This document shows positions 1 through 62,548 of a stretch of 64,000 nt of DNA, one piece after another. The notes beneath the pieces are model-generated. The model was given only the letters and a program-made list of their open reading frames with translations. It did not search any database and was not told the DNA's origin. This DNA comes from an uncultured Gammaproteobacteria bacterium. Its GTDB lineage: Bacteria > Patescibacteriota > Microgenomatia > PFEM01 > DATLAM01. How positions within the stretch are numbered: position 1 is the stretch's first letter; each line of letters opens with the position of its first letter. The stretch is taken from positions 35,951 to 99,950 of the forward strand of contig CAZMIZ010000004.1 of the NCBI GenBank assembly GCA_964566925.1, written 5' to 3'. A program made the translations under genes and the position numbers.

Positions 1-951
1 CAGGGTTATACCCGCTGAAATCATCCCAACCAGAAAAAAGGCTTGAAAAAAGATGTTTTTATATTTTCTGCCGTTCTCATGTCTTTCTGCTACCAATGGA
101 AACATCGCCATTGTAATGGCACCGGAGGCAAAGAAAATGATCTTCCCTAAAACACCAAGGGCAGAATAAAGACCTGCTTGATAAGGTTCCAAAAAATGCT
201 TTATCAAAATAATGTCACTCGTGTAGAGGCTGGTAAGACTAAGGACAACTATAAAGGCAGGGCCAGCATAATTAATTGTCTCCCGCCAGTTAACATTAAG
301 AGTCTTAGCTCTATGTTGAAAGAGAAACCTCAAAGGAAGAAATGAGACCAGGTAGGTTAAATAATCGGCAATGACAAAAGCCAAGACCGCCCCTAAAACA
401 GAAAAGCCAGCCTTGACCAAAAAAAGGGCGATTATCAATTTAGAAACAGCGGCCAACATGTTATTGGCTGAAAGAAATTTAAAGTTCAAAAAACCCTGTA
501 TCAACCCATTATTAATCGGCACCAAAAATCTGATTAAAAAGGTGCTGGCTACAAGGACAATCGCTTGATAGTTAGAAATATTTAAGAATTCAGCCACTGA
601 GCGATGGCCTAAAATAAAAAGAAGGAAAATACTCGCTCCTAAGAGTAAAGAATAGCGACTGAAACCTCGGAAAAGGGAATAGATGCGAGGATAATCTTTC
701 TTGGCCTTAAAAATCGAAGTAAACCGAACCACGACCGTATTAAGAGAAAGAGAAATAACCATACTGAAATAAGCCAAGGACATCAGAGAAACTAAAACAC
801 CATAATCAGCTGGACCCAACATCCGCCCCATGAAAAGGTGATATAAATAGTTGCTCAGGTTGACGGCAGTTGTCCCGACAAACAAGACTAGACTGCCGCT
901 AATAAGCTTGTTTTGAAGGAGTTTAAAAAAATGGTTTTTAATCAATTTCAT
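1..951 (-). CDS. Polysaccharide biosynthesis protein / Wzx-like MOP flippase. Partial: N-terminus in window, gene runs off the 5' edge.
   Basis: Minus-strand ATG at 951 (cat at 949-951). Translation MKLIKNHFFKLLQNKLISGSLVLFVGTTAVNLSNYLYHLFMGRMLGPADYGVLVSLMSLAYFS... is typical of PST/Wzx flippase N-termini. The ORF is open to the window edge. Confidence 0.6.
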   Translation of the reverse strand, partial: MKLIKNHFFKLLQNKLISGSLVLFVGTTAVNLSNYLYHLFMGRMLGPADYGVLVSLMSLAYFSMVISLSLNTVVVRFTSIFKAKKDYPRIYSLFRGFSRYSLLLGASIFLLFILGHRSVAEFLNISNYQAIVLVASTFLIRFLVPINNGLIQGFLNFKFLSANNMLAAVSKLIIALFLVKAGFSVLGAVLAFVIADYLTYLVSFLPLRFLFQHRAKTLNVNWRETINYAGPAFIVVLSLTSLYTSDIILIKHFLEPYQAGLYSALGVLGKIIFFASGAITMAMFPLVAERHENGRKYKNIFFQAFFLVGMISAGITL

Positions 952-54006: not shown

Positions 54007-54276
54007 TTAGGTTCGAGAAAGCAAAAAGAGGGTCGTCATGCTGGCTAAAAGAGCGACCAGACAATATTCGAGAACCACCCTAAAGTGTAGATCTCGATGA
54101 AGGGCATGATGAATCATCCCCCAAATAACATAAGCGACCGCTGTACCGACAACCACCAGCTGCTGAGCAGCCCGGTAATAATCAAAGAGCAAAAATAGAC
54201 TGAACCCCACCGCCAAAATGGAAAAAAGGGCCAGATAGTCTTTTACTTTATATTCTTTAACTAGTTCTTCAAACAT
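54007..54276 (-). CDS. Small 2-TM membrane protein, hypothetical
   Basis: 89 aa, hydrophobic. Confidence 0.35.
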   Translation of the reverse strand: MFEELVKEYKVKDYLALFSILAVGFSLFLLFDYYRAAQQLVVVGTAVAYVIWGMIHHALHRDLHFRVVLEYCLVALLASMTTLFLLSRT

Positions 54277-54285
54277 AAACTCTCT

Positions 54286-55209
54286 TTATAAAATGGCTCC
54301 TTGCTGGGTTAAAAGAGCGGCTAAAAGCAAAGTGCCAATTAAGGCGAGATGAGCTAAATTCCGCCCTGCTAGCCGGACGACCTTCTTACGGTGGACTAAA
54401 ACCAGATCAAAAATAAGCGCCCCAAAAAGGACCCCCATAACCAAAATTGCCAAAGTCTTAGTTAGGAAAAAAGGGCTGAAAAGGGGTGGAGTCGATCTTT
54501 CCTCACCGGTAGATTGATTGAGAGCGGCTACCAATTCTTCTTCAACCGCCGAAGCTTCTCCAAGCCTGCTAACCGGCGATTCAACCGTTTCTGGAGGAGA
54601 GGTTTGAGAATAGTTCTGGACGACGGGAGCCGGAGCGGGAGTCGGTGTTCCAAAAAGCTGAACGACTAAAGTCGTCTCTATTCCTTGTAAGGTTCCGTCC
54701 ACCACCGCCAAGCCAATCTCTTCATAATGACCATTCAAGAGATTGTCTTTATGAGACGGGGAAGCCATCCAGGCCTGAACTACCTCTTCAGGGGTATAAA
54801 AATCTCGGGCCAAGTTTTCACCGGCATAAAGGTAACTATAGCCGGCTTGCTGGAAAAAGAACCAAGGATTCCGTCCCGAAGGAGAATTATGCGCCCAGTA
54901 ATCCAAGGCAAACATATCCCCGGCCTTGGCTAAGGCGGCTTGGTTTAAAGTTTGATTAATCTCTAAGGGTGCCAAACCATTTTCTAATCGTTTTTGATTG
55001 GTTAACTCAATCACCCGCTCAGGCGTAATTGCTGAAGCAAAACCAAGAACATGAGGTGAAACAAGAATAAAAAAGTTTAATCCAAATTGGCCAACCAAGA
55101 ACAAAGCCACTAAAACCGATAAAGAAGCAGGGTGAAGAATCTTAGCTTTGTAGTTATTACCCTGATGGGGAATGAAAAAATGGTGGCACCATTTGAGCAG
55201 GTTTTCCAT
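54286..55209 (-). CDS. CAP/SCP (PR-1-like, YkwD-type) domain membrane protein
   Basis: ELTNQKRLENGLAPLEINQTLNQAALAKAGDMFALDYWAHNSPSGRNPW...GENLARDF...SPSHKDNLLNGHYEEIGLAV, with N- and C-terminal TM segments. Confidence 0.8.
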   Translation of the reverse strand: MENLLKWCHHFFIPHQGNNYKAKILHPASLSVLVALFLVGQFGLNFFILVSPHVLGFASAITPERVIELTNQKRLENGLAPLEINQTLNQAALAKAGDMFALDYWAHNSPSGRNPWFFFQQAGYSYLYAGENLARDFYTPEEVVQAWMASPSHKDNLLNGHYEEIGLAVVDGTLQGIETTLVVQLFGTPTPAPAPVVQNYSQTSPPETVESPVSRLGEASAVEEELVAALNQSTGEERSTPPLFSPFFLTKTLAILVMGVLFGALIFDLVLVHRKKVVRLAGRNLAHLALIGTLLLAALLTQQGAIL

Positions 55210-55280: not shown

Positions 55281-55850
55281 TCATTCTGGTTGCAATCTAG
55301 CTCTCACCACATAGCGTTGGGAATCCCAAAAACCAGTGCAAGTATAGAGAGTTAAGATGGCTTCTTTGGTGGGAGACAAGATCTCGACGAAATCAGGGGA
55401 AACTGTTTTAGTTTCCGTTAGTTGGTAAACAAATTCCTCTCCTTTTTTATTAAAAATTTTAATCTCAACTCCCTTTTCCAGCCACCTGATTGGCCCAAAA
55501 AGATTATTTTTATTGTGGCCGTAAATAACCGTATTTCCTTCTCTCCCAGGAATACCGGAGCCAAGAAGATAAGAAACGCCTTCGTCGGCAACTTGCCACT
55601 GATCATTGGTTACTTCGGCCAAAAAAACAGGCAAATCAATCCCTACCTGGGGAATTACAACTCTTTCCGGTAAATCCTCTTCTTTAACCTCGGTTTGGGT
55701 TTCAGGAAAACTGGCAAAGGAAAGGCTGTTCTCCTGGAATTGAGAGGCTTTTTGCCAAAGAAAAGCTAAAATTAAAAAAGAAAAACCAAGAAAAAAGAGG
55801 ATTAAGCCGATCTTTTGACGGGAAGAAGCCTTAAGCCAACACCGGTGCAT
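55281..55850 (-). CDS. Sortase (class E-like transpeptidase)
   Basis: N-terminal TM, His in NTVIYGHN, and the TLxTC motif LTLYTCTG with a downstream Arg. 49-nt overlap with the upstream substrate gene. Confidence 0.8.
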   Translation of the reverse strand: MHRCWLKASSRQKIGLILFFLGFSFLILAFLWQKASQFQENSLSFASFPETQTEVKEEDLPERVVIPQVGIDLPVFLAEVTNDQWQVADEGVSYLLGSGIPGREGNTVIYGHNKNNLFGPIRWLEKGVEIKIFNKKGEEFVYQLTETKTVSPDFVEILSPTKEAILTLYTCTGFWDSQRYVVRARLQPE

Positions 55851-56674
55851 ACACTACCCATTATAAACAAAAGGTAAAAAAGATTCTCGGCTAAACTGCC
55901 TGTGTCTGCTAAAGTGGTCGCTCCTAAGACCTGACCTCTTCCTAAAACTTGACCAGTACAAATTTCATTGGAAGGATCACTCGGAGCACAATCATTAACC
56001 GCCCGAACAATAAAGCAATAATCAGATCCCAAATCTAAACCGCCTACAGAATAAGCGGTAACCTTGCCAGTATTATCAACCCCATAAAGATAACTACCTG
56101 AAGAAAAACCATAGGAAATCTGGTAGTGGGTGGCTGGTTCAACGGCCGTCCAACTTAAATCAGCACTGCTCCCACTTTTAATGGCACTCAAAAGAGTTGG
56201 CGCTGACGGAATGGTGGCCCCACAAACAAAAGGTTCACCTGGTCCGCCGGTACCCCCATTATCACCGCCATCGCCACCGTCCCCGCCGTTACTGGGGGGA
56301 GTGGTGGGAGTCGGAGTTGGAGTCAAGGTTGAGGTTGGGGTGGGGGTTTCTCCTGAACAGTCGCAGTCTGTTTCTTCCCAACAAGCCGGATTCCGACAAA
56401 CCAGCCTACCATCTATCTCATATTCGTTTAAATCTCCTAAGCAGAATGATGGACAACCACCACACTCACAAGGAGTCTGATCACATCCACCACAATCTTG
56501 ACAATCTGGACAATCTGGACAAGAGCATTCTCCACAATCCTCACAAATTGAACCACAACCACTAGGACAAACCCCGTCTTGAATGGCTAAGGCTGCAGCG
56601 CTTGTCAAGAATAAAAGCGCCAGGAAAATGAAACCGATTTTAATTAGTCGCGGAGAAATTTTTTGTTTAAACAT
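55802..56674 (-). CDS. Secreted Cys-rich surface protein with Thr/Pro linker, Fn3-like domain and C-terminal LAxTG-type sorting signal
   Basis: Signal peptide; CPDCPDCQDCGGC-type Cys cluster; TPTPTSTLTPTPTPTT linker. C-terminus LADTGS + hydrophobic LFYLLFIMGSVCTGVGL + RLLPVKRSA. Confidence 0.6.
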   Translation of the reverse strand: MFKQKISPRLIKIGFIFLALLFLTSAAALAIQDGVCPSGCGSICEDCGECSCPDCPDCQDCGGCDQTPCECGGCPSFCLGDLNEYEIDGRLVCRNPACWEETDCDCSGETPTPTSTLTPTPTPTTPPSNGGDGGDGGDNGGTGGPGEPFVCGATIPSAPTLLSAIKSGSSADLSWTAVEPATHYQISYGFSSGSYLYGVDNTGKVTAYSVGGLDLGSDYCFIVRAVNDCAPSDPSNEICTGQVLGRGQVLGATTLADTGSLAENLFYLLFIMGSVCTGVGLRLLPVKRSA

Positions 56675-56731: not shown

Positions 56732-58846
56732 CTAACTAAAGAAAGAAGCCAAACTCATTAAGAAGGAGCGAAAAGCCGCTGATCTGGCGCTAAGAAAGCC
56801 TCGGCTGGTTGCTAAAGCCCCTATTAGTTCTCTTCTTCTTCGGTATCCCTTAGTTGATAGGTAGGTGGCCAAGGAACCGAAAAGAATCACCCATAGTTTT
56901 TGTTCTTGGGTCATTCCCGCCGGGGCCGTTGTCACTCCTAAAGTACCGCCACCCCCAGCCGCTTCCACCTCTTGACTGGCTCCAGGAATCAAAGGTAAAG
57001 AACCACCGATCAGAAAAGGACTCTCTGATGAAGCCGAAATCAACTGATCATCTGGGCCAACGTAACCTGAAGCCACGGCTCGAGCTAGATATTCACCCGG
57101 GGGAGCATCTTGGGAAAGAACCAAGCCGGTAGTCACCTTAACGCCTTTACCGGCATCAAGATCACCTAAATCAAAAATCCCGCCACCCATATCAATTCCG
57201 TCCTTAATCAAATTAATCGCCAGCTTAGTATCATAAACTCGACCGGTTCCCGGATTTTTAACGACAACAAAGAAAGTAACGGTGTCGCCCGGAAGAACAT
57301 GAGTGCCCACATTATGACTCAAATTAACTTCCAGAAGTCCCCCTTCTTGGTGAAGCTCTAAACCTGAATCTTCATGAGCCGAAGTTGTCTCAATTGGGGA
57401 GTCAGGGTTATTTTCCGGATCAGTGGCAAAAAGACTGGCGCCACCAATATCCCCATCAAGAGAACCAAAGATATTAATAAAACCTAAAAAGCCAAACGAA
57501 CGAATAATTGAGGAATTAACAAAATTAATAATCGAAATCGCACTGTAGGCATCCCCAGTTTCAATCTCTGCTTCCCCACCTTCAATTGAATTCCCGCCGG
57601 TATTGGCAGTTGAGGAAACATTGTTGACCACACAGGCTTGATTATCAACCAAAACCACATCGCCACAGGTGGAACAACTACTATCACTATCAGTACTTGA
57701 ACTAGTGGAACTCAATAACAAATTGCCGCCTCCAGCTAAACCTTCCAGCTCATTCCAACCCAAAAAGTCTCCTAGCCATTGGCCAAAAGTATTAACCACC
57801 AAATGATAGAAAGTAACGTCAACCAAACTGGTATTAACTAAATTAACCAAATTAACCACGCTTTGGGCATTACCGGTAGTGATACTGGCGCTCTCGGTGC
57901 TCGTAATTGAGTTCTGGCCACTGATGGCTGAGGAATCAACCTGATTTTCAACCGTCGCCTCGTTTTCTATTTTTACGACCTCACCGCAGCAGTTATCTTC
58001 AGTCGAGAACTCAGGTAAAAGAATGTTTCCTTCAACCCCGCCAAAAATGTTAATCGTCACGATATGAACGGTGGAATCAATAAAGGTCGTATTCACCTTA
58101 TTAAGTAAGGAAACAATTGAAACGGCATCGCCGGTATTGATCACCGCTTCTTCAGCCCCTTCAATTGAGTTATCCCCGGTATTGGCTGAAGAAACAATCT
58201 CGTTAGAGAGATAGGCGAAATTCTGATTATTAATGACGGAAACATTAACCACCGGTTCTTGATTGTCATTTTGAATAAAAACGTTATTGGCAATTGCCAG
58301 GGGTGTCGTGGTTAAATCGATATCCCCACCCTGGGGAACAAAAATATTTAAAGTTTGGTACAAAACCTGGGAATTGACTTCCGTCGAATTGACTTCATTT
58401 TCCACTTCCACCACGGAAACGGCATCACCGGTTTCAATTACCGCCGGTGAAGGCGTGGGCGTCGGCGTCTCTTCAGGAAGGGTTTCGGTTTCTCCCGTCG
58501 TTTCTTCGGTGGCACTGGGAGTGGCTTCTTCAGTGGTTAAGGGATCAATCGTTGGAGTGGGCGTCGGTTCCTCAATTGAATTTTCACCACTGATCGCCGT
58601 TGAGTCAACTTCGTTGGTCACTTCGGCTTCGTTTTCAATTTCGGCGGTCGTCGCCTCTTCTTCAGTTTCCTCAGGTGGGTCGCAAGGCGGCAAAGAATCA
58701 CCAGATTCATCCGTGGTTTCCGTTGTCTGCACCTCTGGATCGTCTCCTGAACCAGCTTCTTCAGCTAAAACGGCTCTAAAGCCCAGCTGACCCACGGCCA
58801 GTAAGAAAATGATCCAGATTGCTAAACCTTTTTTAATTTTTTTCAT
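56732..58846 (-). CDS. Secreted 704-aa acidic repeat protein ('TGDNSI' repeat family), Thr/Pro-rich N-terminal region
   Basis: Signal peptide MKKIKKGLAIWIIFLLAVG. Four ~90-aa repeats with core N.V.S.A.TG.NSI.G....I.TGDA.S...L.N.VN(T/S). Confidence 0.6.
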   Translation of the reverse strand: MKKIKKGLAIWIIFLLAVGQLGFRAVLAEEAGSGDDPEVQTTETTDESGDSLPPCDPPEETEEEATTAEIENEAEVTNEVDSTAISGENSIEEPTPTPTIDPLTTEEATPSATEETTGETETLPEETPTPTPSPAVIETGDAVSVVEVENEVNSTEVNSQVLYQTLNIFVPQGGDIDLTTTPLAIANNVFIQNDNQEPVVNVSVINNQNFAYLSNEIVSSANTGDNSIEGAEEAVINTGDAVSIVSLLNKVNTTFIDSTVHIVTINIFGGVEGNILLPEFSTEDNCCGEVVKIENEATVENQVDSSAISGQNSITSTESASITTGNAQSVVNLVNLVNTSLVDVTFYHLVVNTFGQWLGDFLGWNELEGLAGGGNLLLSSTSSSTDSDSSCSTCGDVVLVDNQACVVNNVSSTANTGGNSIEGGEAEIETGDAYSAISIINFVNSSIIRSFGFLGFINIFGSLDGDIGGASLFATDPENNPDSPIETTSAHEDSGLELHQEGGLLEVNLSHNVGTHVLPGDTVTFFVVVKNPGTGRVYDTKLAINLIKDGIDMGGGIFDLGDLDAGKGVKVTTGLVLSQDAPPGEYLARAVASGYVGPDDQLISASSESPFLIGGSLPLIPGASQEVEAAGGGGTLGVTTAPAGMTQEQKLWVILFGSLATYLSTKGYRRRRELIGALATSRGFLSARSAAFRSFLMSLASFFS

Positions 58847-58877
58847 TAATCTTTCTTCTTAAACTTACTTAACTCGT

Positions 58878-58911
58878 CCCTGGGAAGGGGGCCAAAACCC
58901 CCTTCCCTAGG
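58878..58911. other. GC-rich perfect 10-bp stem hairpin (GGGAAGGGGG-ccaaaa-CCCCCTTCCC) between the 143-aa and 704-aa repeat-protein genes
   Basis: Read directly. No flanking U/A tract on either strand. Confidence 0.7.
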
Positions 58912-58941
58912 ACAAAAACAAGCGCTCCTTTTGCGGAGTGA

Positions 58942-59373
58942 TTACATGCCAATCAAACTATAATTGACAAAGCTAGTCACAACCGAGGTTGCGCTTGCAG
59001 CACCGGTGTTAATTGATCCGCTTCCGACCATTCCCCCGCTAATCATGTTGTCTCCACTGTCGGCTTTGGTCTTAACCCAGTTAGAAACCACCCCACCATT
59101 GTAGATATTCCCTCCGAAACAACCAACACATCCTCCGATCCCAGTGCTATTAACATCATTGCCCACATTGGCGTAGGCGCTAGCGGCACCAGTGCGAATT
59201 GAGCCGCCACAGACCCACATCCCGCCAATCATGTTGTCTCCACTGTCGGCTTTGGTCCGAACACTATTGGAAACAAGACCATAATTGTGAATGTTCCACA
59301 TACCCATGGCTGGGCCAGCAACGGAAAGAAGCATTAAGCCTGCGGCACCGAACGCAATTGCTTTTTTAACCAT
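58942..59373 (-). CDS. Small secreted protein with 2 copies of the same TGDN repeat
   Basis: Signal peptide. VSNSVRTKADSGDNMIGG...IRTGAASAYANVGNDVNST is duplicated. Confidence 0.55.
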   Translation of the reverse strand: MVKKAIAFGAAGLMLLSVAGPAMGMWNIHNYGLVSNSVRTKADSGDNMIGGMWVCGGSIRTGAASAYANVGNDVNSTGIGGCVGCFGGNIYNGGVVSNWVKTKADSGDNMISGGMVGSGSINTGAASATSVVTSFVNYSLIGM

Positions 59374-59432
59374 TTAATTTTCACCCCCTTTCCCTGCCTC
59401 GCCATCACCTAGAAGGCAAAGACGGGCTTAAG

Positions 59433-59452
59433 AATTTTCTTCGAAGAAAATT
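59433..59452. promoter_or_regulatory. Perfect 20-bp palindrome AATTTTCTTCGAAGAAAATT, ~60-80 bp upstream of the 143-aa secreted-protein gene; candidate operator
   Basis: Read directly; it sits in a 230-bp intergenic region. Confidence 0.5.
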
Positions 59453-59603
59453 TTTAGAATAGTAAAAGAATTCCAGCAAGAAATATTTACCTCTCTTGGT
59501 ATCTAGCAAAACCAAATCTGACTTCTTATAGGGCAGAAAGTTAAGAAGTTAACTAGCAATATAGAGCAGAAAAAGAGATTTTGTCAAGAGCCAACTTTCT
59601 CTC

Positions 59604-59990
59604 TTAAGGCGAAAACCAGAAAAATCCTATAATTTCTGAAAAAAGACGGCTGACAAAATCCAATAGTTTTTTTCTAAAAACCTCTATTGATTGGGAAGCC
59701 TTTTCCTGAGATTCTTCATTTGGCTGATCAGGAGAAACCGAGGTAACCACCAATGAACCTTCTGGGCTGGATTCAACTTTAACCTCCCCATCCTCCACTT
59801 CCACTTTAATCGTGCCTGGACTGGTGCTTTCCACGTGAGTCGTTTCTCCATTGACAACATTGGTGATTTCCGTTTGGGCAGAAGCATTATCGCCAGAAAC
59901 TTCGTTAATCACCTCTGTTTCTACTTTAGCTGAGGCCAGATTGGAAATAATCAGGGGAAAGAAAACAAAACTTAGAAAAACCCTTCTCAT
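59604..59990 (-). CDS. Small secreted protein, one degenerate copy of the repeat
   Basis: Signal peptide. INEVSGDNASAQTEITNVVNGETTHV. Confidence 0.45.
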   Translation of the reverse strand: MRRVFLSFVFFPLIISNLASAKVETEVINEVSGDNASAQTEITNVVNGETTHVESTSPGTIKVEVEDGEVKVESSPEGSLVVTSVSPDQPNEESQEKASQSIEVFRKKLLDFVSRLFSEIIGFFWFSP

Positions 59991-60088: not shown

Positions 60089-62548
60089 ATGGAAACCTTT
60101 TCTGCCTATCTTTTTTGGCATTATGTCTTTGCGCCAAAGAAGCTTTTAAGGATCACAACCAATTTTTTCCTTTTCTTTTATTATTACTTCTCAGTCAGAA
60201 TTTTGGTCCGAACCTTCTTCTCTCCCTGGAAAAGGCAAACGATTAAAAGAGAAAGGAGGCTTAGTCTTTCTAACCTCCTCCAGGTTCTTTCTTTTAACCT
60301 TATCTCCCGAACGATTGGGGCCATTGTTCGAGGAATCGTTTTATTGGGCTGGTTCTGGAGTGAAGTCGTCGTCTTTTTCTTTTTTCTTTTCCTTTTCCCC
60401 GCCTGGATAATCATTCCGGGGTTCACCTCCCCTCTTTTCCTTTACTTGAGGAAGCCACCTGATCCTGCCTTAAAGTTAATTAAAAAGAGGGTTAGCGATC
60501 CAGAAAAAATCTTTCGGTTTCTGCTTAAAACCGAGATGGGCAAATTTCTTTTCTCTCGACTAGGCATTTTACCAGGGAAGTTCACCGACTCATTAACCAA
60601 AACCCCTCCCAAAGACCAACCCTTCCCCTTACCCAAAACCCCTTCCTCAACCCGCCTCTTCTATCTTTTGGCTAAAAACTGGTCACCTTTTAAAAAATTT
60701 CTTTTTGAAAAAGAATTGGACGAAAAAGACATCCTCACTGTTTGCCGTTGGTTTGAAAGGATTAAGAAAGAGGAACGACACCAGATTCGCTTCTGGGAGT
60801 CCGAAAATCTTTTAAGCATGAGGGGGATTGGCAAAGATTGGGCCTATGGTTACACCCTTGATTTGGATAAATACTCGGATGATTTAACCCAACCTTTGCC
60901 TTTTTCTCACCATCTGGTCGGCCGCGAAAAAGAAGTCGAACTGATCCAACAGGTTCTCTCCCGAGCCGAAGAAAACAACGTTTTGCTGGTTGGCCAACCG
61001 GGCATTGGCCGTCACACAATTATTTTAGAGTTGGCCAAAAAAGTGAAAGAAGGAAGAGTCCATCCTTCTTTAGCTCATAAACGAGTTCTCTCTTTAAATC
61101 TTAATCTCCTCTTGGGTTCTTCGGAATCACTGGTAAAGGCAAAAGGTCTTATTGAGACCGTTCTTCAAGAAGCCACCAAGGCCGGCAATGTCATCCTGGT
61201 CATTGACAGTTTTGACAAATTTGTTTCCAGTGGTTCTGGCCGAATCGACTTAACTGACCTTTTTAAAGAAAGTTCAACTGGAGCCAGGCTTCAAGTCATT
61301 GGCATTACCACCCCCGCTGCTTTCCAGAAATATATCTTCCCTAACCAGGAAATTATGAAAGCTTTTGAAAAGGTCGAGGCTGAACCACCCAGTCTCAAAG
61401 AGGCCCTGGTGATTCTCCAAGACACGACTCCTTTTTATGAGAAACGAAATAATGTTTTTGTTCTTCATCAAACCTTAACCGAGATCGTTACCAAGTCTGA
61501 CCAGTATGTGACCGAAATTCCCTTTCCGGAGAAAGCAATTGACCTTCTTGATGAGAGCTGCGTCTTTACCTCAACAAAAGCCAAAAAGCCTCTCGTCACC
61601 CCTAAGGAAGTTAATCAAGTTTTGGCGGAAAAAATCAAAATTCCTTTAGGCGATATTAAAAAAGAGGAGCAAGAAAAACTGAAACAGCTAGAAAGTCTCT
61701 TGCATAAAAGAATCGTTAACCAAGAAATAGCTGTCAGTCAAATTGCCAAAGCGATGCGTCGAGCTAGGCTAGGAATTGCCCAAAAAGACAAGCCAATTGG
61801 TACTTTCCTCTTTTTGGGCCCCACCGGGGTGGGTAAAACCGAAACCGCTAAAGCCTTAGCCGAAGCCTATTTTGGCCACGAAAAACGAATGATTCGTTTC
61901 GATATGAGCGAATATCAAGGCCAAGACGCGATCAAAAGAGTTCTTGGCAATCAAACGACTGAAGAACCAGGTTTAATCGCCTCGGCCATCCGGAAAAATC
62001 CTTTCTCTTTGCTTCTTTTGGATGAAATTGAAAAAGCCCACCCTGATATTCTTAATCTTTTTCTGGTTCTCCTTGATGAAGGTTTTTTCACTGACGCCTT
62101 TGGTAAAAAAATCGATTGTCGTAACCTGATTGTCATTGGCACTTCCAACGCTGGCAGTGAATTTATTCGGGAAGAACTTAACCGAGGGACTGATAAAAAC
62201 CAATTGCCAGCCAAAGTTTTAGACTTCGTTCAGAAAAAGGAAATCTTTTCTCCGGAATTTCTTAATCGTTTTGATGCGGTCGTTGTTTATGGGCCATTAA
62301 ATAAAGACCAATTAAAAAAGGTTGCCCAACTCCTTCTCCAAAGACTAAACCAGAGACTGGCCGAAAAAGATCTGAAGCTAAAAATTGATGATCAACTAAT
62401 TGAAAAAGTGGCTGAGTTAGGCTATAGTCCCACCCTTGGCGCCCGACCAATGAAACGAGTTATCCAAGACAAAATCGAGGATCAAATTGCCCAGCGAATC
62501 CTTAAAGGAGAATTAAAAAGAGGCCAAAAAGTCGAAATCAACCTTTAA
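60089..62548 (+). CDS. ClpA/ClpB-like double-AAA+ ATPase with N-terminal transmembrane region; degenerate first nucleotide-binding module
   Basis: D1: LVGREKEVELIQQVLSRAEENNVLLVGQPGIGRHTI (Walker A K->R) and VILVIDSFD (Walker B DE->DS). D2 intact: FLGPTGVGKTE and LLLLDEIEKAH. TM segments at ~aa 70-115. Confidence 0.75.
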   Translation: METFSAYLFWHYVFAPKKLLRITTNFFLFFYYYFSVRILVRTFFSPWKRQTIKRERRLSLSNLLQVLSFNLISRTIGAIVRGIVLLGWFWSEVVVFFFFLFLFPAWIIIPGFTSPLFLYLRKPPDPALKLIKKRVSDPEKIFRFLLKTEMGKFLFSRLGILPGKFTDSLTKTPPKDQPFPLPKTPSSTRLFYLLAKNWSPFKKFLFEKELDEKDILTVCRWFERIKKEERHQIRFWESENLLSMRGIGKDWAYGYTLDLDKYSDDLTQPLPFSHHLVGREKEVELIQQVLSRAEENNVLLVGQPGIGRHTIILELAKKVKEGRVHPSLAHKRVLSLNLNLLLGSSESLVKAKGLIETVLQEATKAGNVILVIDSFDKFVSSGSGRIDLTDLFKESSTGARLQVIGITTPAAFQKYIFPNQEIMKAFEKVEAEPPSLKEALVILQDTTPFYEKRNNVFVLHQTLTEIVTKSDQYVTEIPFPEKAIDLLDESCVFTSTKAKKPLVTPKEVNQVLAEKIKIPLGDIKKEEQEKLKQLESLLHKRIVNQEIAVSQIAKAMRRARLGIAQKDKPIGTFLFLGPTGVGKTETAKALAEAYFGHEKRMIRFDMSEYQGQDAIKRVLGNQTTEEPGLIASAIRKNPFSLLLLDEIEKAHPDILNLFLVLLDEGFFTDAFGKKIDCRNLIVIGTSNAGSEFIREELNRGTDKNQLPAKVLDFVQKKEIFSPEFLNRFDAVVVYGPLNKDQLKKVAQLLLQRLNQRLAEKDLKLKIDDQLIEKVAELGYSPTLGARPMKRVIQDKIEDQIAQRILKGELKRGQKVEINL

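Follow-up and report, generated by a model that had tools for sequence, protein, structure and literature searches.

What is the repeat carried by adjacent secreted proteins at this locus, and do the proteins that carry it act together? The window, by which we mean the whole 64,000-nucleotide stretch of DNA that was analysed, comes from an ultra-small bacterium that has not been cultivated and contains three neighbouring genes that had been proposed in the initial annotation to encode secreted proteins of 704, 143 and 128 aa with a common, unnamed repeat. The three open reading frames were recovered at the positions listed in Table 1, all on the minus strand, and they lie between a sortase gene and a ClpB-like ATPase gene as had been described, except that a gene for a 290-aa protein intervenes on the sortase side. 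We suggest here, with moderate confidence, that the 704-aa protein (BIG) and the 143-aa protein (the small protein) are the products of a conserved Patescibacteria surface gene pair, centred on the Microgenomates, and that an anchored base and a secreted partner with a shared module form a surface structure together.

Table 1. Features of the locus, in window coordinates
Feature	Residues	Position	Strand	Remarks
Sortase gene		55281-55850		Downstream of the 704-aa gene, ~0.9 kb away
290-aa protein gene		55802-56674		Between the sortase and 704-aa genes; overlaps the sortase gene
704-aa (BIG) protein gene		56732..58846	-	ORF
BIG, C-terminal TM helix	647-669	56840..56908	-	AF2 model and family alignment
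BIG, Ig-like beta-sandwich, CARDB/DUF11-like	506-613	57008..57331	-
BIG module 4	394-462	57461..57667	-	i-E 1e-28
BIG module 3	287-356	57779..57988	-	i-E 1e-29
BIG module 2	203-269	58040..58240	-	i-E 2e-28; block-mean pLDDT 89-95
BIG module 1, second half	135-169	58340..58444	-	Profile positions 34-68, i-E 9e-11
BIG module 1, first half	67-93	58568..58648	-	Profile positions 4-30, i-E 3e-10
Very stable, G+C-rich RNA hairpin		58867..58923	-	Spacer between the small and BIG genes
143-aa small secreted protein gene		58942..59373	-	ORF
Sigma-70-like promoter TTGACA-18-TATATT		59558..59587	-	11/12, consensus match only; upstream of the small gene
128-aa signal-peptide protein gene		59604..59990	-	ORF; separate conserved family, without the repeat
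ClpB-like ATPase gene		60089-62548	+	Opposite side of the locus from the sortase

The repeat was assessed with a profile (A3) of 70 positions, built without the window's own copies, and proteins were assigned to the family if they matched this profile and retained the invariant Gly and Asn of 'TG.N', the Gly of 'TG.A' and the Asn of 'VN(T/S)'. By this definition the 704-aa protein, with four copies, and the 143-aa protein, with two copies (residues 26-81, 5e-20, and residues 89-143, 4e-17), are members, and both copy numbers agree with those first proposed. In pairwise Smith-Waterman comparisons against shuffles, the copies of the large protein gave z = 17-21 among themselves, while the two copies of the small protein gave z = 17 mutually and 4-11 against the large-protein copies. 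BIG module 1 is one copy split at profile positions 30/34, and between its halves, precisely where the hairpin tip is predicted, lie 41 inserted residues rich in Thr, Pro and Glu. A conserved Cys-Cys comes before module 3 and a conserved G.W.G.FLGW motif after it, and a conserved C-x-x-C (C391, C394) precedes module 4. The single copy attributed to the 128-aa protein was not recovered, as this protein reaches only 4.5 bits against the profile with z values no higher than 2.5, and its 'SGDNAS', when the protein is aligned with the rest of its family, falls in a different loop, '(Q/S)G.G.V.THIE'. The proposal of a repeat common to three secreted proteins thus holds for the 704-aa and 143-aa proteins and fails for the 128-aa protein of the window, which we rejected as a repeat carrier.

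Neither Pfam nor NCBIfam, against which the three proteins and their neighbours were scanned, contains a match for the repeat, which can therefore still be regarded as an unnamed domain. No family of either database matched the 704-aa protein even at E<=1; the 143-aa protein had no match in NCBIfam and in Pfam only a 9.7-bit chance match to DUF5987 (cut-off 27), and a Pfam search with 46 members of the small family returned scattered sub-threshold matches only. Searches of the PDB by sequence and by profile, for which the protein, the repeat profile and the small-family profile served as queries, yielded no more than chance or signal-peptide matches, the PDB constructs that aligned to the small-family N terminus doing so solely through PelB-type leader sequences, and fold searches with the module found no counterpart among solved structures; a very distant relationship to some known superfamily may nevertheless exist. 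We found no description of this repeat family in the literature on CPR surface proteins, sortases and S-layers. One candidate relationship, to C-terminal domain III of the T4 baseplate protein gp6 (T4 gp6 C-III, PF21871), was considered and rejected as a chance motif match. Five of the 46 small-family members have short matches below threshold to this domain over ~28-30 residues ('N.A.V..V.T.ADSGDN'; best E 5.7e-5), but two of them, for which scores were read, reach 13.9 and 15.4 bits where the gathering cut-off is 27, the small protein of the window does not match at all, and no match was returned when 50,697 phage genomes were searched by tblastn with the repeat region.

The AF2 model of BIG (mean pLDDT 76.6) is repetitive and confident over the modules, which are all-beta and have, like the Ig domain, block-mean pLDDT values mostly of 88-96. 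A repetitive beta structure had been anticipated, in the form of a beta-solenoid or a fibre-forming unit; however, mean-field couplings calculated from 949 repeat copies (Meff 832) describe an antiparallel hairpin and not a parallel beta-solenoid. The coupled pairs 19-43, 11-51, 15-49, 28-34, 24-38 and 26-38 place strand 1 against strand 3 in an extended antiparallel hairpin with a kink, capped by a short hairpin at its tip. At the kink the 'TG.N' motif lies opposite the 'TG.A' motif, and N52, the Asn of 'VN(T/S)', couples to positions 24, 26, 38 and 39 and touches both, so that the three motifs from which the repeat had been recognised meet at one point. The full-length module closes with a hydrophobic strand ('..INIFG') that lies against strand 3, with positions 48-50 coupling to 62-63. 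The conserved Asn, Gly, Ala, Ser and Val residues occupy one sheet face and the kink. With Asn, Gly, Thr and Ser as its invariant residues, the module is best regarded as structural rather than catalytic.

In BIG the modules are part of a longer arrangement, in which a signal peptide and an acidic Thr/Pro-rich region are followed by the four ~70-aa beta modules, an Ig-like domain, a C-terminal TM helix and a basic/amphipathic tail. The acidic region had been noted before and is pronounced, residues 29-134 consisting of 31% Asp+Glu, 36% Thr+Pro and 0% Lys+Arg. The claim that all three proteins carry signal peptides is supported by modelled N-terminal helices for the large (residues 2-22) and small (residues 3-19) proteins, by the alignment of the small-family N terminus to PelB-type leaders, and by eye only for the 128-aa protein. 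No Pfam match to CARDB or DUF11 was found in the window's 704-aa protein at E<=1, and distant relatives of the repeat family have DUF11 and CARDB Pfam matches of up to 5.5e-18; the likeness to surface proteins with these domains concerns the membrane-proximal domain of BIG and not the repeat. The C terminus comprises a conserved E(V/I)LG...G(L/M)T, the TM helix, and then a ~35-residue tail, made up of an Arg/Lys cluster and an amphipathic stretch; helix and basic cluster are kept across the family, and BIG is predicted to be membrane-anchored through this helix. BIG has at least 235 homologues, and among the matches listed most are full-length and none bears a functional name. In the small protein a signal peptide is followed by two modules of reduced length, with a conserved C-x-x-C as the link between them. 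Its modules end at profile position ~58, those of small proteins in general at ~56-59, and lack the 'INIFG' strand, whereas BIG modules extend to profile positions 68-70 (955 of 1,187 full-start domains), and the protein stops at the end of its second module with neither an anchor nor a sorting signal.

The family is large. The repeat profile retrieved 3,067 cluster representatives at E<=1e-3, and 1,786 at E<=1e-10, from 1.84 billion (1.84e9) proteins, and many of these representatives hold 5-9 copies. The 58 GTDB loci whose taxon label is meaningful all belong to the Patescibacteria (CPR), mostly to the Microgenomates. According to the HMM, 36 of 43 related loci have the small gene directly upstream of the BIG gene in the same orientation, and in the remaining 7 a divergent two-copy signal-peptide ORF was recognised by eye at the same spot, which brings the pairing to 43/43. 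This strict pairing, the C-terminal membrane anchor and the CARDB-like Ig domain of BIG had all escaped the initial annotation. The other neighbours are less constant: among 30 well-flanked loci a sortase gene is present within 6.5 kb at 13, a ClpB-like ATPase gene at 4, a CAP-domain protein gene at 7 and galE at 4. As their co-occurrence is partial, none of the four is an obligatory partner, and the sortase and the ATPase, which had been singled out as flanks of the locus, are not core parts of it.

The 95-nt spacer between the two genes folds into the hairpin of Table 1, with a folding energy of -43 kcal/mol (z = -6.9). Equivalent spacer hairpins, with z of -4 or lower, are found in 29 of 30 relatives, and a pattern scan showed the hairpin to be position-specific; no T-run follows it and an Rfam scan of the spacer gave no match. 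RNAalifold called only three pairs from a MAFFT alignment of 21 intergenic hairpins in which the stems were out of register, and we base the hairpin on the stability of the individual sequences. The small gene is also preceded by a ribosome-binding site, AAGGGGGTGA.

These findings can be combined into a model for the pair. The signal peptide of BIG would direct its export and the C-terminal helix would keep it in the membrane, with the CARDB-like Ig domain, the four modules and the acidic Thr/Pro-rich region, including the loop from the tip of module 1, extending outward from the membrane. The small protein, with its two modules that lack the last strand and without an anchor, would be exported and released, and might then bind or extend anchored BIG through the shared module to give a surface layer or fibre. 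The two would thus divide their roles as long and short chaplins do, or CsgB and CsgA in curli. The hairpin, the ribosome-binding site of the small gene and a putative strong promoter of its own would together tilt production towards the small protein over the large one. Because the pair recurs throughout the lineage, it probably builds part of the cell surface. From the shared modules and the adjacency of the genes we infer that the small protein and BIG co-assemble; paralogous neighbours need not interact. Likewise, we infer the surface location, the stoichiometry and a role in envelope structure or host attachment, and it is possible that the repeat proteins form fibres. A more far-reaching version, which we regard as unlikely, holds that the module is a new fold, that the anchored and secreted pair builds a Patescibacteria-specific surface layer or attachment fibre, and that the strand-deficient modules of the small protein are completed in trans by a route not described before. 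Pilins lack a strand that is supplied by another subunit, and the small modules without their last hydrophobic strand resemble the donor-strand-complemented pilins (chaperone-usher, type V pili, TasA) in logic only, as the module is neither Ig-like nor jelly-roll, the cassette contains no chaperone, usher or processing protease, and we identified no donor strand here.

Three other explanations have to be weighed against co-assembly of the pair. In one, the module is lectin-like or adhesin-like and binds a ligand of the host or the envelope, for example glycan or peptidoglycan, BIG being an anchored adhesin and the small protein an independent, soluble paralogue. The layout of BIG, with signal peptide, repeats, a CARDB/DUF11-like domain and an anchor, is typical of adhesins and some distant relatives have an additional PG_binding_1 domain, which would be consistent with this view, as would the assumption that CPR bacteria are host-attached and the link of CPR-enriched families to cell-cell interaction (PMC6744442). 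The conserved face and kink of the module, however, resemble a packing surface rather than a pocket, and the systematic loss of one strand in the small modules would be odd for an autonomous binding domain. Moreover, the strict 43/43 pairing and the conserved intergenic hairpin argue for a joint function of the two proteins, and we consider independent binding a doubtful, if serious, alternative. It has also to be considered that the adjacent sortase might polymerise or anchor the repeat proteins in the manner of Gram-positive pilins. Its gene lies close to that of BIG, as it does at the 13 loci mentioned above, and sortases are near-ubiquitous in the Microgenomates (PMC6744442). Yet more than half of the loci have no sortase nearby, neither LPXTG nor LAXTG was found at the BIG C terminus, whose tail differs from the short, basic one that ends a sorting signal, and the small protein offers no such signal either. 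In addition, the 290-aa neighbour, in which LADTG is followed by a TM helix and the short basic tail 'PVKRSA', and whose gene overlaps that of the sortase, is on these grounds the obvious candidate for its substrate. A sortase-dependent pilus or wall-anchored system thus seems very improbable to us.

The remaining explanation is a functional amyloid of the curli or chaplin type, with the small protein polymerising into cross-beta fibres that are nucleated by anchored BIG. Curli are built from CsgA and CsgB, whose repeat S-x5-Q-x-G-x-G-N-x-A-x3-Q forms ~20-residue beta-arches stacked in parallel, and Streptomyces produces long chaplins (ChpA-C) with a sortase anchor and short secreted ones (ChpD-H). 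The genetic logic is the same here as in csgBA and in the long and short chaplins, an anchored and a free protein sharing one repeat. With CsgB/CsgA the likeness extends to adjacent genes for a surface-bound and a secreted protein and to a Gly/Asn/Ser-rich beta repeat, and with the chaplins to an anchored multi-domain and a small secreted protein with a common domain, a location at the surface, predicted for the pair here, and a lineage that has sortase. The abundance of Asn, Ser, Thr, Gly, Ala and Val, the small residues of the conserved sheet face and the missing strand of the small modules also fit an amyloid. On the other hand, the antiparallel hairpin lies in a discrete, confidently modelled ~70-residue domain and not in in-register parallel ~20-residue beta-arches, hhalign of the repeat profile (A3) with E. 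coli CsgA gave a probability of 0.1%, and Pfam contains no Curlin_rpt or chaplin (DUF320) match, on which grounds identity with the Curlin repeat was rejected. The motif set also differs from that of the chaplins, which are anchored by LAXTG and not by a transmembrane helix, and CsgG/E/F-type secretion genes are not present here. An amyloid appears quite unlikely on this evidence, and co-assembly of BIG and the small protein through the shared module remains our preferred explanation.

The Patescibacteria account for a large part of bacterial diversity, and a life attached to other cells is assumed for the majority of them. What their envelope consists of has been described as unclear (PMC5220378), and the families enriched in the lineage are mostly poorly annotated, many being predicted membrane or extracellular proteins (PMC6744442). 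One such family is now precisely defined by this locus, with a profile of thousands of members, a confident all-beta model supported by couplings, and a fixed two-gene arrangement with an RNA hairpin. The module could be entered into domain databases, the family can be searched for in metaproteomes and tomograms, and the 143-aa protein could be expressed alone. If the two proteins do co-assemble, they would represent a new example of a surface polymer made of an anchored nucleator and a secreted subunit, outside the cultured phyla, and if the new-fold and strand-completion reading is true, they would provide a molecular handle on the cell envelope of the Microgenomates.

Lastly, some members of the 128-aa family have, just after the signal peptide, a short 'I.TGDA.S.V' stretch that is absent from the window's protein. 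It aligns to the repeat with an hhalign probability of 21% only, and it is possible that these relatives contain a half-copy of the repeat. Of 36 loci, 14 have a gene of this family ahead of the pair on its upstream side.

We show here that the repeat first noticed in this region is carried by two neighbouring proteins, a 704-aa protein (BIG or p704, a name also used for its homologue family) and a secreted 143-aa protein (the small protein), encoded among the five genes on the minus strand at 55.2-60.0 kb of the window. The initial annotation had counted 4, 2 and 1 copies in the 704-, 143- and 128-aa proteins, respectively. Using A3, a 70-position profile of the module built from 75 repeat units of homologues and rebuilt for this test without the window's own copies, the four copies in BIG and the two in the small protein were recovered, and pairwise local alignments against shuffles gave z-scores of 17-21 between copies inside BIG, 17 inside the small protein and 4-11 between the two proteins. 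The 128-aa protein has no significant copy (4.5 bits against the profile, z ≤2.5), and its 'SGDNAS' aligns with a different loop in the alignment of its own family, a separate conserved one found at 17 loci; it was therefore rejected as a repeat carrier. Some members of this family have 'I.TGDA.S.V' directly after the signal peptide, which the window's protein lacks, and the hhalign probability for this stretch against the repeat is only 21%. The acidic Thr/Pro-rich N-terminal region previously described in BIG was confirmed, with 31% D+E, 36% T+P and no K/R in residues 29-134.

Genes, module copies, predicted protein regions and expression signals at the locus
Feature	Position	Strand	Remark
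128-aa ORF	59604-59990	minus	first of five in transcription order
143-aa ORF (small gene)	58942-59373	minus	second
704-aa ORF (BIG)	56732-58846	minus	third
290-aa ORF (p290)	55802-56674	minus	fourth
Sortase gene	55281-55850	minus	fifth; Pfam Sortase 4.7e-24
ClpB-like AAA+ gene	60089-62548	plus	Pfam AAA_2, ClpB_D2-small
CAP-domain gene	54286-55209	minus	cysteine-rich secretory protein family; C-terminal membrane segment
89-aa membrane protein gene	54007-54276	minus	paired with CAP-domain gene
BIG copy 1, split	residues 67-93 and 135-169		i-E 3e-10 and 9e-11, rebuilt profile
BIG copy 2	residues 203-269		i-E 2e-28, rebuilt profile
BIG copy 3	residues 287-356		i-E 1e-29, rebuilt profile
BIG copy 4	residues 394-462		i-E 1e-28, rebuilt profile
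Small protein copy 1	residues 26-81		i-E 5e-20, rebuilt profile
Small protein copy 2	residues 89-143		i-E 4e-17, rebuilt profile
BIG signal helix	residues 2-22		AlphaFold2 layout
BIG disordered acidic region			AlphaFold2 layout; after signal helix
BIG four all-beta modules			AlphaFold2 layout; after acidic region
BIG Ig-like sandwich	residues 506-613		AlphaFold2 layout
BIG disordered linker			AlphaFold2 layout; between sandwich and transmembrane helix
BIG transmembrane helix	residues 647-669		AlphaFold2 layout
BIG helical tail segments			AlphaFold2 layout; after transmembrane helix
RNA hairpin, long, G+C-rich	58867-58923	minus	small-BIG spacer; predicted folding
Sigma-70-like promoter match, 11/12	59587-59558	minus	upstream of small gene; consensus match
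Sigma-70 consensus, 12/12 (TTGACA-16-TATAAT)	56724-56697	minus	just upstream of p290 gene

The AlphaFold model proposed in the initial annotation, computed from a 74-sequence alignment, has a mean pLDDT of 76.6, with block means mostly of 88-96 over the four all-beta modules and the C-terminal domain; the small-protein model reached moderate confidence only. As a check independent of AlphaFold2, mean-field direct-coupling analysis was applied to 949 aligned repeat units (Meff 832). The strongest couplings line up as an antiparallel ladder (i+j~63), in which strand 1 pairs with strand 3 (19-43, 11-51, 15-49, 13-51, 21-43), 28-34 and 28-36 mark the hairpin tip, 'TG.N' lies opposite 'TG.A' (24-38, 26-38, 23-41), N52, the Asn of 'VN(T/S)', is coupled to positions 24, 26, 38 and 39, and strand 3 pairs with the last strand (48-50 to 62-63). 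From these couplings it follows that the three motifs meet in space at the kink of one long hairpin, and that the module is not the parallel beta-solenoid suggested earlier. BIG module 1 is split by a 41-residue Thr/Pro/Glu insertion between profile positions 30 and 34, that is, at the hairpin tip, a place expected to accept an insertion. Conserved residues occupy alternate positions of strand 1 (N, A, V, N, V, S, A) and of strand 3 (A, S, V, L, N, V), so that small residues build up a single, tightly packing face of the sheet. The linkers hold conserved cysteines: C-x-x-C ahead of BIG module 4 and in the stretch joining the small protein's two modules, and CC ahead of BIG module 3. What stands of the first reading is an unnamed, all-beta repeat in two proteins; the copy in the 128-aa protein and the solenoid do not.

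That the repeat is no recognised named domain was borne out, as BIG has no Pfam or NCBIfam match at E≤1, the sole Pfam match of the small protein (9.7 bits) is by chance, and PDB sequence and profile searches gave chance or signal-peptide matches only. A short sub-threshold match to T4 gp6 C-terminal domain III recurs in 5 of 46 small-family members in a Pfam scan (13.9 and 15.4 bits in the two members read, cut-off 27); no match turned up when the repeat region was compared by tblastn with 50,697 phage genomes. BIG has at least 235 homologues, among the matches listed mostly full-length, with source labels including Daviesbacteria, Beckwithbacteria and Levybacteria, and none of those listed is named for a function or has its repeat covered by a Pfam domain. 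The profile search of protein collections that had been called for returned, from 1.84 billion proteins, 3,067 cluster representatives at E≤1e-3 (1,786 at E≤1e-10), many of them 900-1,180-aa proteins with 5-9 copies that often also carry DUF11, CARDB or PG_binding_1 domains, one labelled Parcubacteria. When GTDB was scanned with one genome for each species, 58 loci were found; all meaningfully labelled ones are Patescibacteria (Davies-, Beckwith-, Woese-, Levy-, Gottesman-, Curtiss- and Amesbacteria, plus Paceibacterota). Some are MAG contigs labelled 'uncultured Gammaproteobacteria', Bathyarchaeia or Bacteroidetes, which we read as generic or mis-binned because the genes on them belong to the same family. 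The module is unnamed, widespread, all-beta and, by the labelled loci, Patescibacteria-associated; the domain family and the gene pair are genuinely unannotated and well conserved.

Directly upstream of the BIG homologue and on the same strand, an HMM found the small two-module gene at 36 of the 43 loci with at least 800 bp of upstream flank; at the remaining 7 a divergent two-copy signal-peptide ORF was recognised by eye at the same spot. The 128-aa family lies upstream in 14/36. Near BIG homologues were also found a sortase (13/30, within 6.5 kb), a 290-aa-like protein (11/30), a CAP-domain protein (7/30), a ClpB-like ATPase (4/30) and GalE (4/30). On these counts the core unit is the small-BIG pair, and the sortase is a frequent but not obligatory neighbour, which fits its near-ubiquity in Microgenomates (PMC6744442). 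The sortase and ClpB-like ATPase context noted initially holds for the window's pair, but co-occurrence elsewhere is partial. Two separate cassettes occur in each of two genomes (L026 and L031 in MAG DATKGO01; L010 and L027 in MAG JAJYEF01), so the pair can duplicate as a unit.

The two partners differ in build. BIG is an anchored four-module protein with a conserved C-terminus (E(V/I)LG ... G(L/M)T.E(Q/E)K, a helix, a K/R cluster and an amphipathic tail of ~30 residues) that has no LPXTG-type motif, and BIG modules extend to profile position 68-70 in 955 of 1,187 full-start domains. The secreted two-module protein, strictly co-located with BIG, has no anchor and shortened modules, which systematically end at profile position ~56-59 and therefore lack '..INIFG', a hydrophobic strand packing against strand 3.

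Between the two genes lies a 95-nt spacer with a very stable predicted fold (-43 kcal/mol, z = -6.9), and equivalent spacers have z ≤-4 in 29 of 30 relatives (L004, L007-L059) with differing stem sequences. The purine-arm/pyrimidine-arm pattern occurs once in the 64-kb window and, in the fetched loci, only at the spacer position; the hairpin has no Rfam match and no T-run after it. A strong AAGGGGGTGA ribosome-binding site precedes the small gene, that of BIG being weaker. Together these signals would fit a higher output of small protein than of BIG, and the hairpin may act in RNA processing or stability and so set the small:large ratio.

We regard the two as a variant of a kind already known, in which surface proteins are made of repeats and an anchored protein has a free partner. 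We suggest that they form one extracellular structure, with anchored BIG presumably serving as the base to which the small protein would attach, or which it would lengthen, via the common module. Long and short chaplins, and curli CsgB and CsgA, may be compared for a similar logic of anchored and free partners, although neither system is related to BIG and the small protein in sequence or fold. A true amyloid would be a rival reading; the module is a discrete antiparallel domain, which argues against a curli-type architecture, and the repeat profile showed no similarity in hhalign to E. coli CsgA.

Alternatively, BIG and the small protein might be independent adhesin or binding proteins that share a module and a locus. 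A sortase-dependent pilus is disfavoured because neither of them has a sorting signal. The likely sortase substrate is instead p290, the 290-aa neighbour, since its C-terminus combines 'QVLGATTLADTG' (LADTG), a TM helix and a short basic tail ('PVKRSA') and its gene overlaps the sortase gene by 49 nt; the rest of p290 comprises a Cys-rich N-terminal domain, a Thr/Pro linker, a Gly/Asp-rich stretch and fn3 (Pfam 2.3e-7). The domain family and gene pair yield a testable structural hypothesis.

An '(E/Q)(V/I)LG' motif is shared by the BIG family, by the LADTG/MADTG proteins encoded next to a sortase and by a further fn3 surface protein, in each case lying a few residues ahead of the C-terminal membrane helix (p704 residues ~632-640, window ~56927-56953; p290 residues 242-252; locus L002 10127-11654; locus L003 5764-7014); it may represent a processing or sorting signal of these bacteria that has gone unrecognised. 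At 23 loci (L003 7197-7361, L005 6976-7203, L026 5988-6200, plus 20 more) a 54-89-aa ORF without signal peptide, absent from window 59374-59603, separates the small gene from that of the 128-aa family; its motif is '...GWGSVEI.VQ...VTQITE(K/R).I(K/R)K', and it resembles YezD/DUF2292, the sole Pfam record being a faint precomputed match. The pair of CAP-domain and 89-aa membrane proteins is again near the cassette in ~16 fetched loci. In the ClpB-like protein, an unusual, hydrophobic, membrane-segment-like N-terminal stretch of ~120 residues takes the place of the Clp N-domain.

No tRNA genes were found in the entire 64 kb window. Over its whole length GC skew is slightly negative. AT skew is strongly positive across most of 1-42000 (+0.13 to +0.29), falling close to zero at about 2-4, 18-20, 22-24 and 26-28 kb, and is mostly near zero in 42000-64000, except +0.14 at 54-58 kb. 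Strand composition disparity has been noted for one published Microgenomates genome (PMC7143001).
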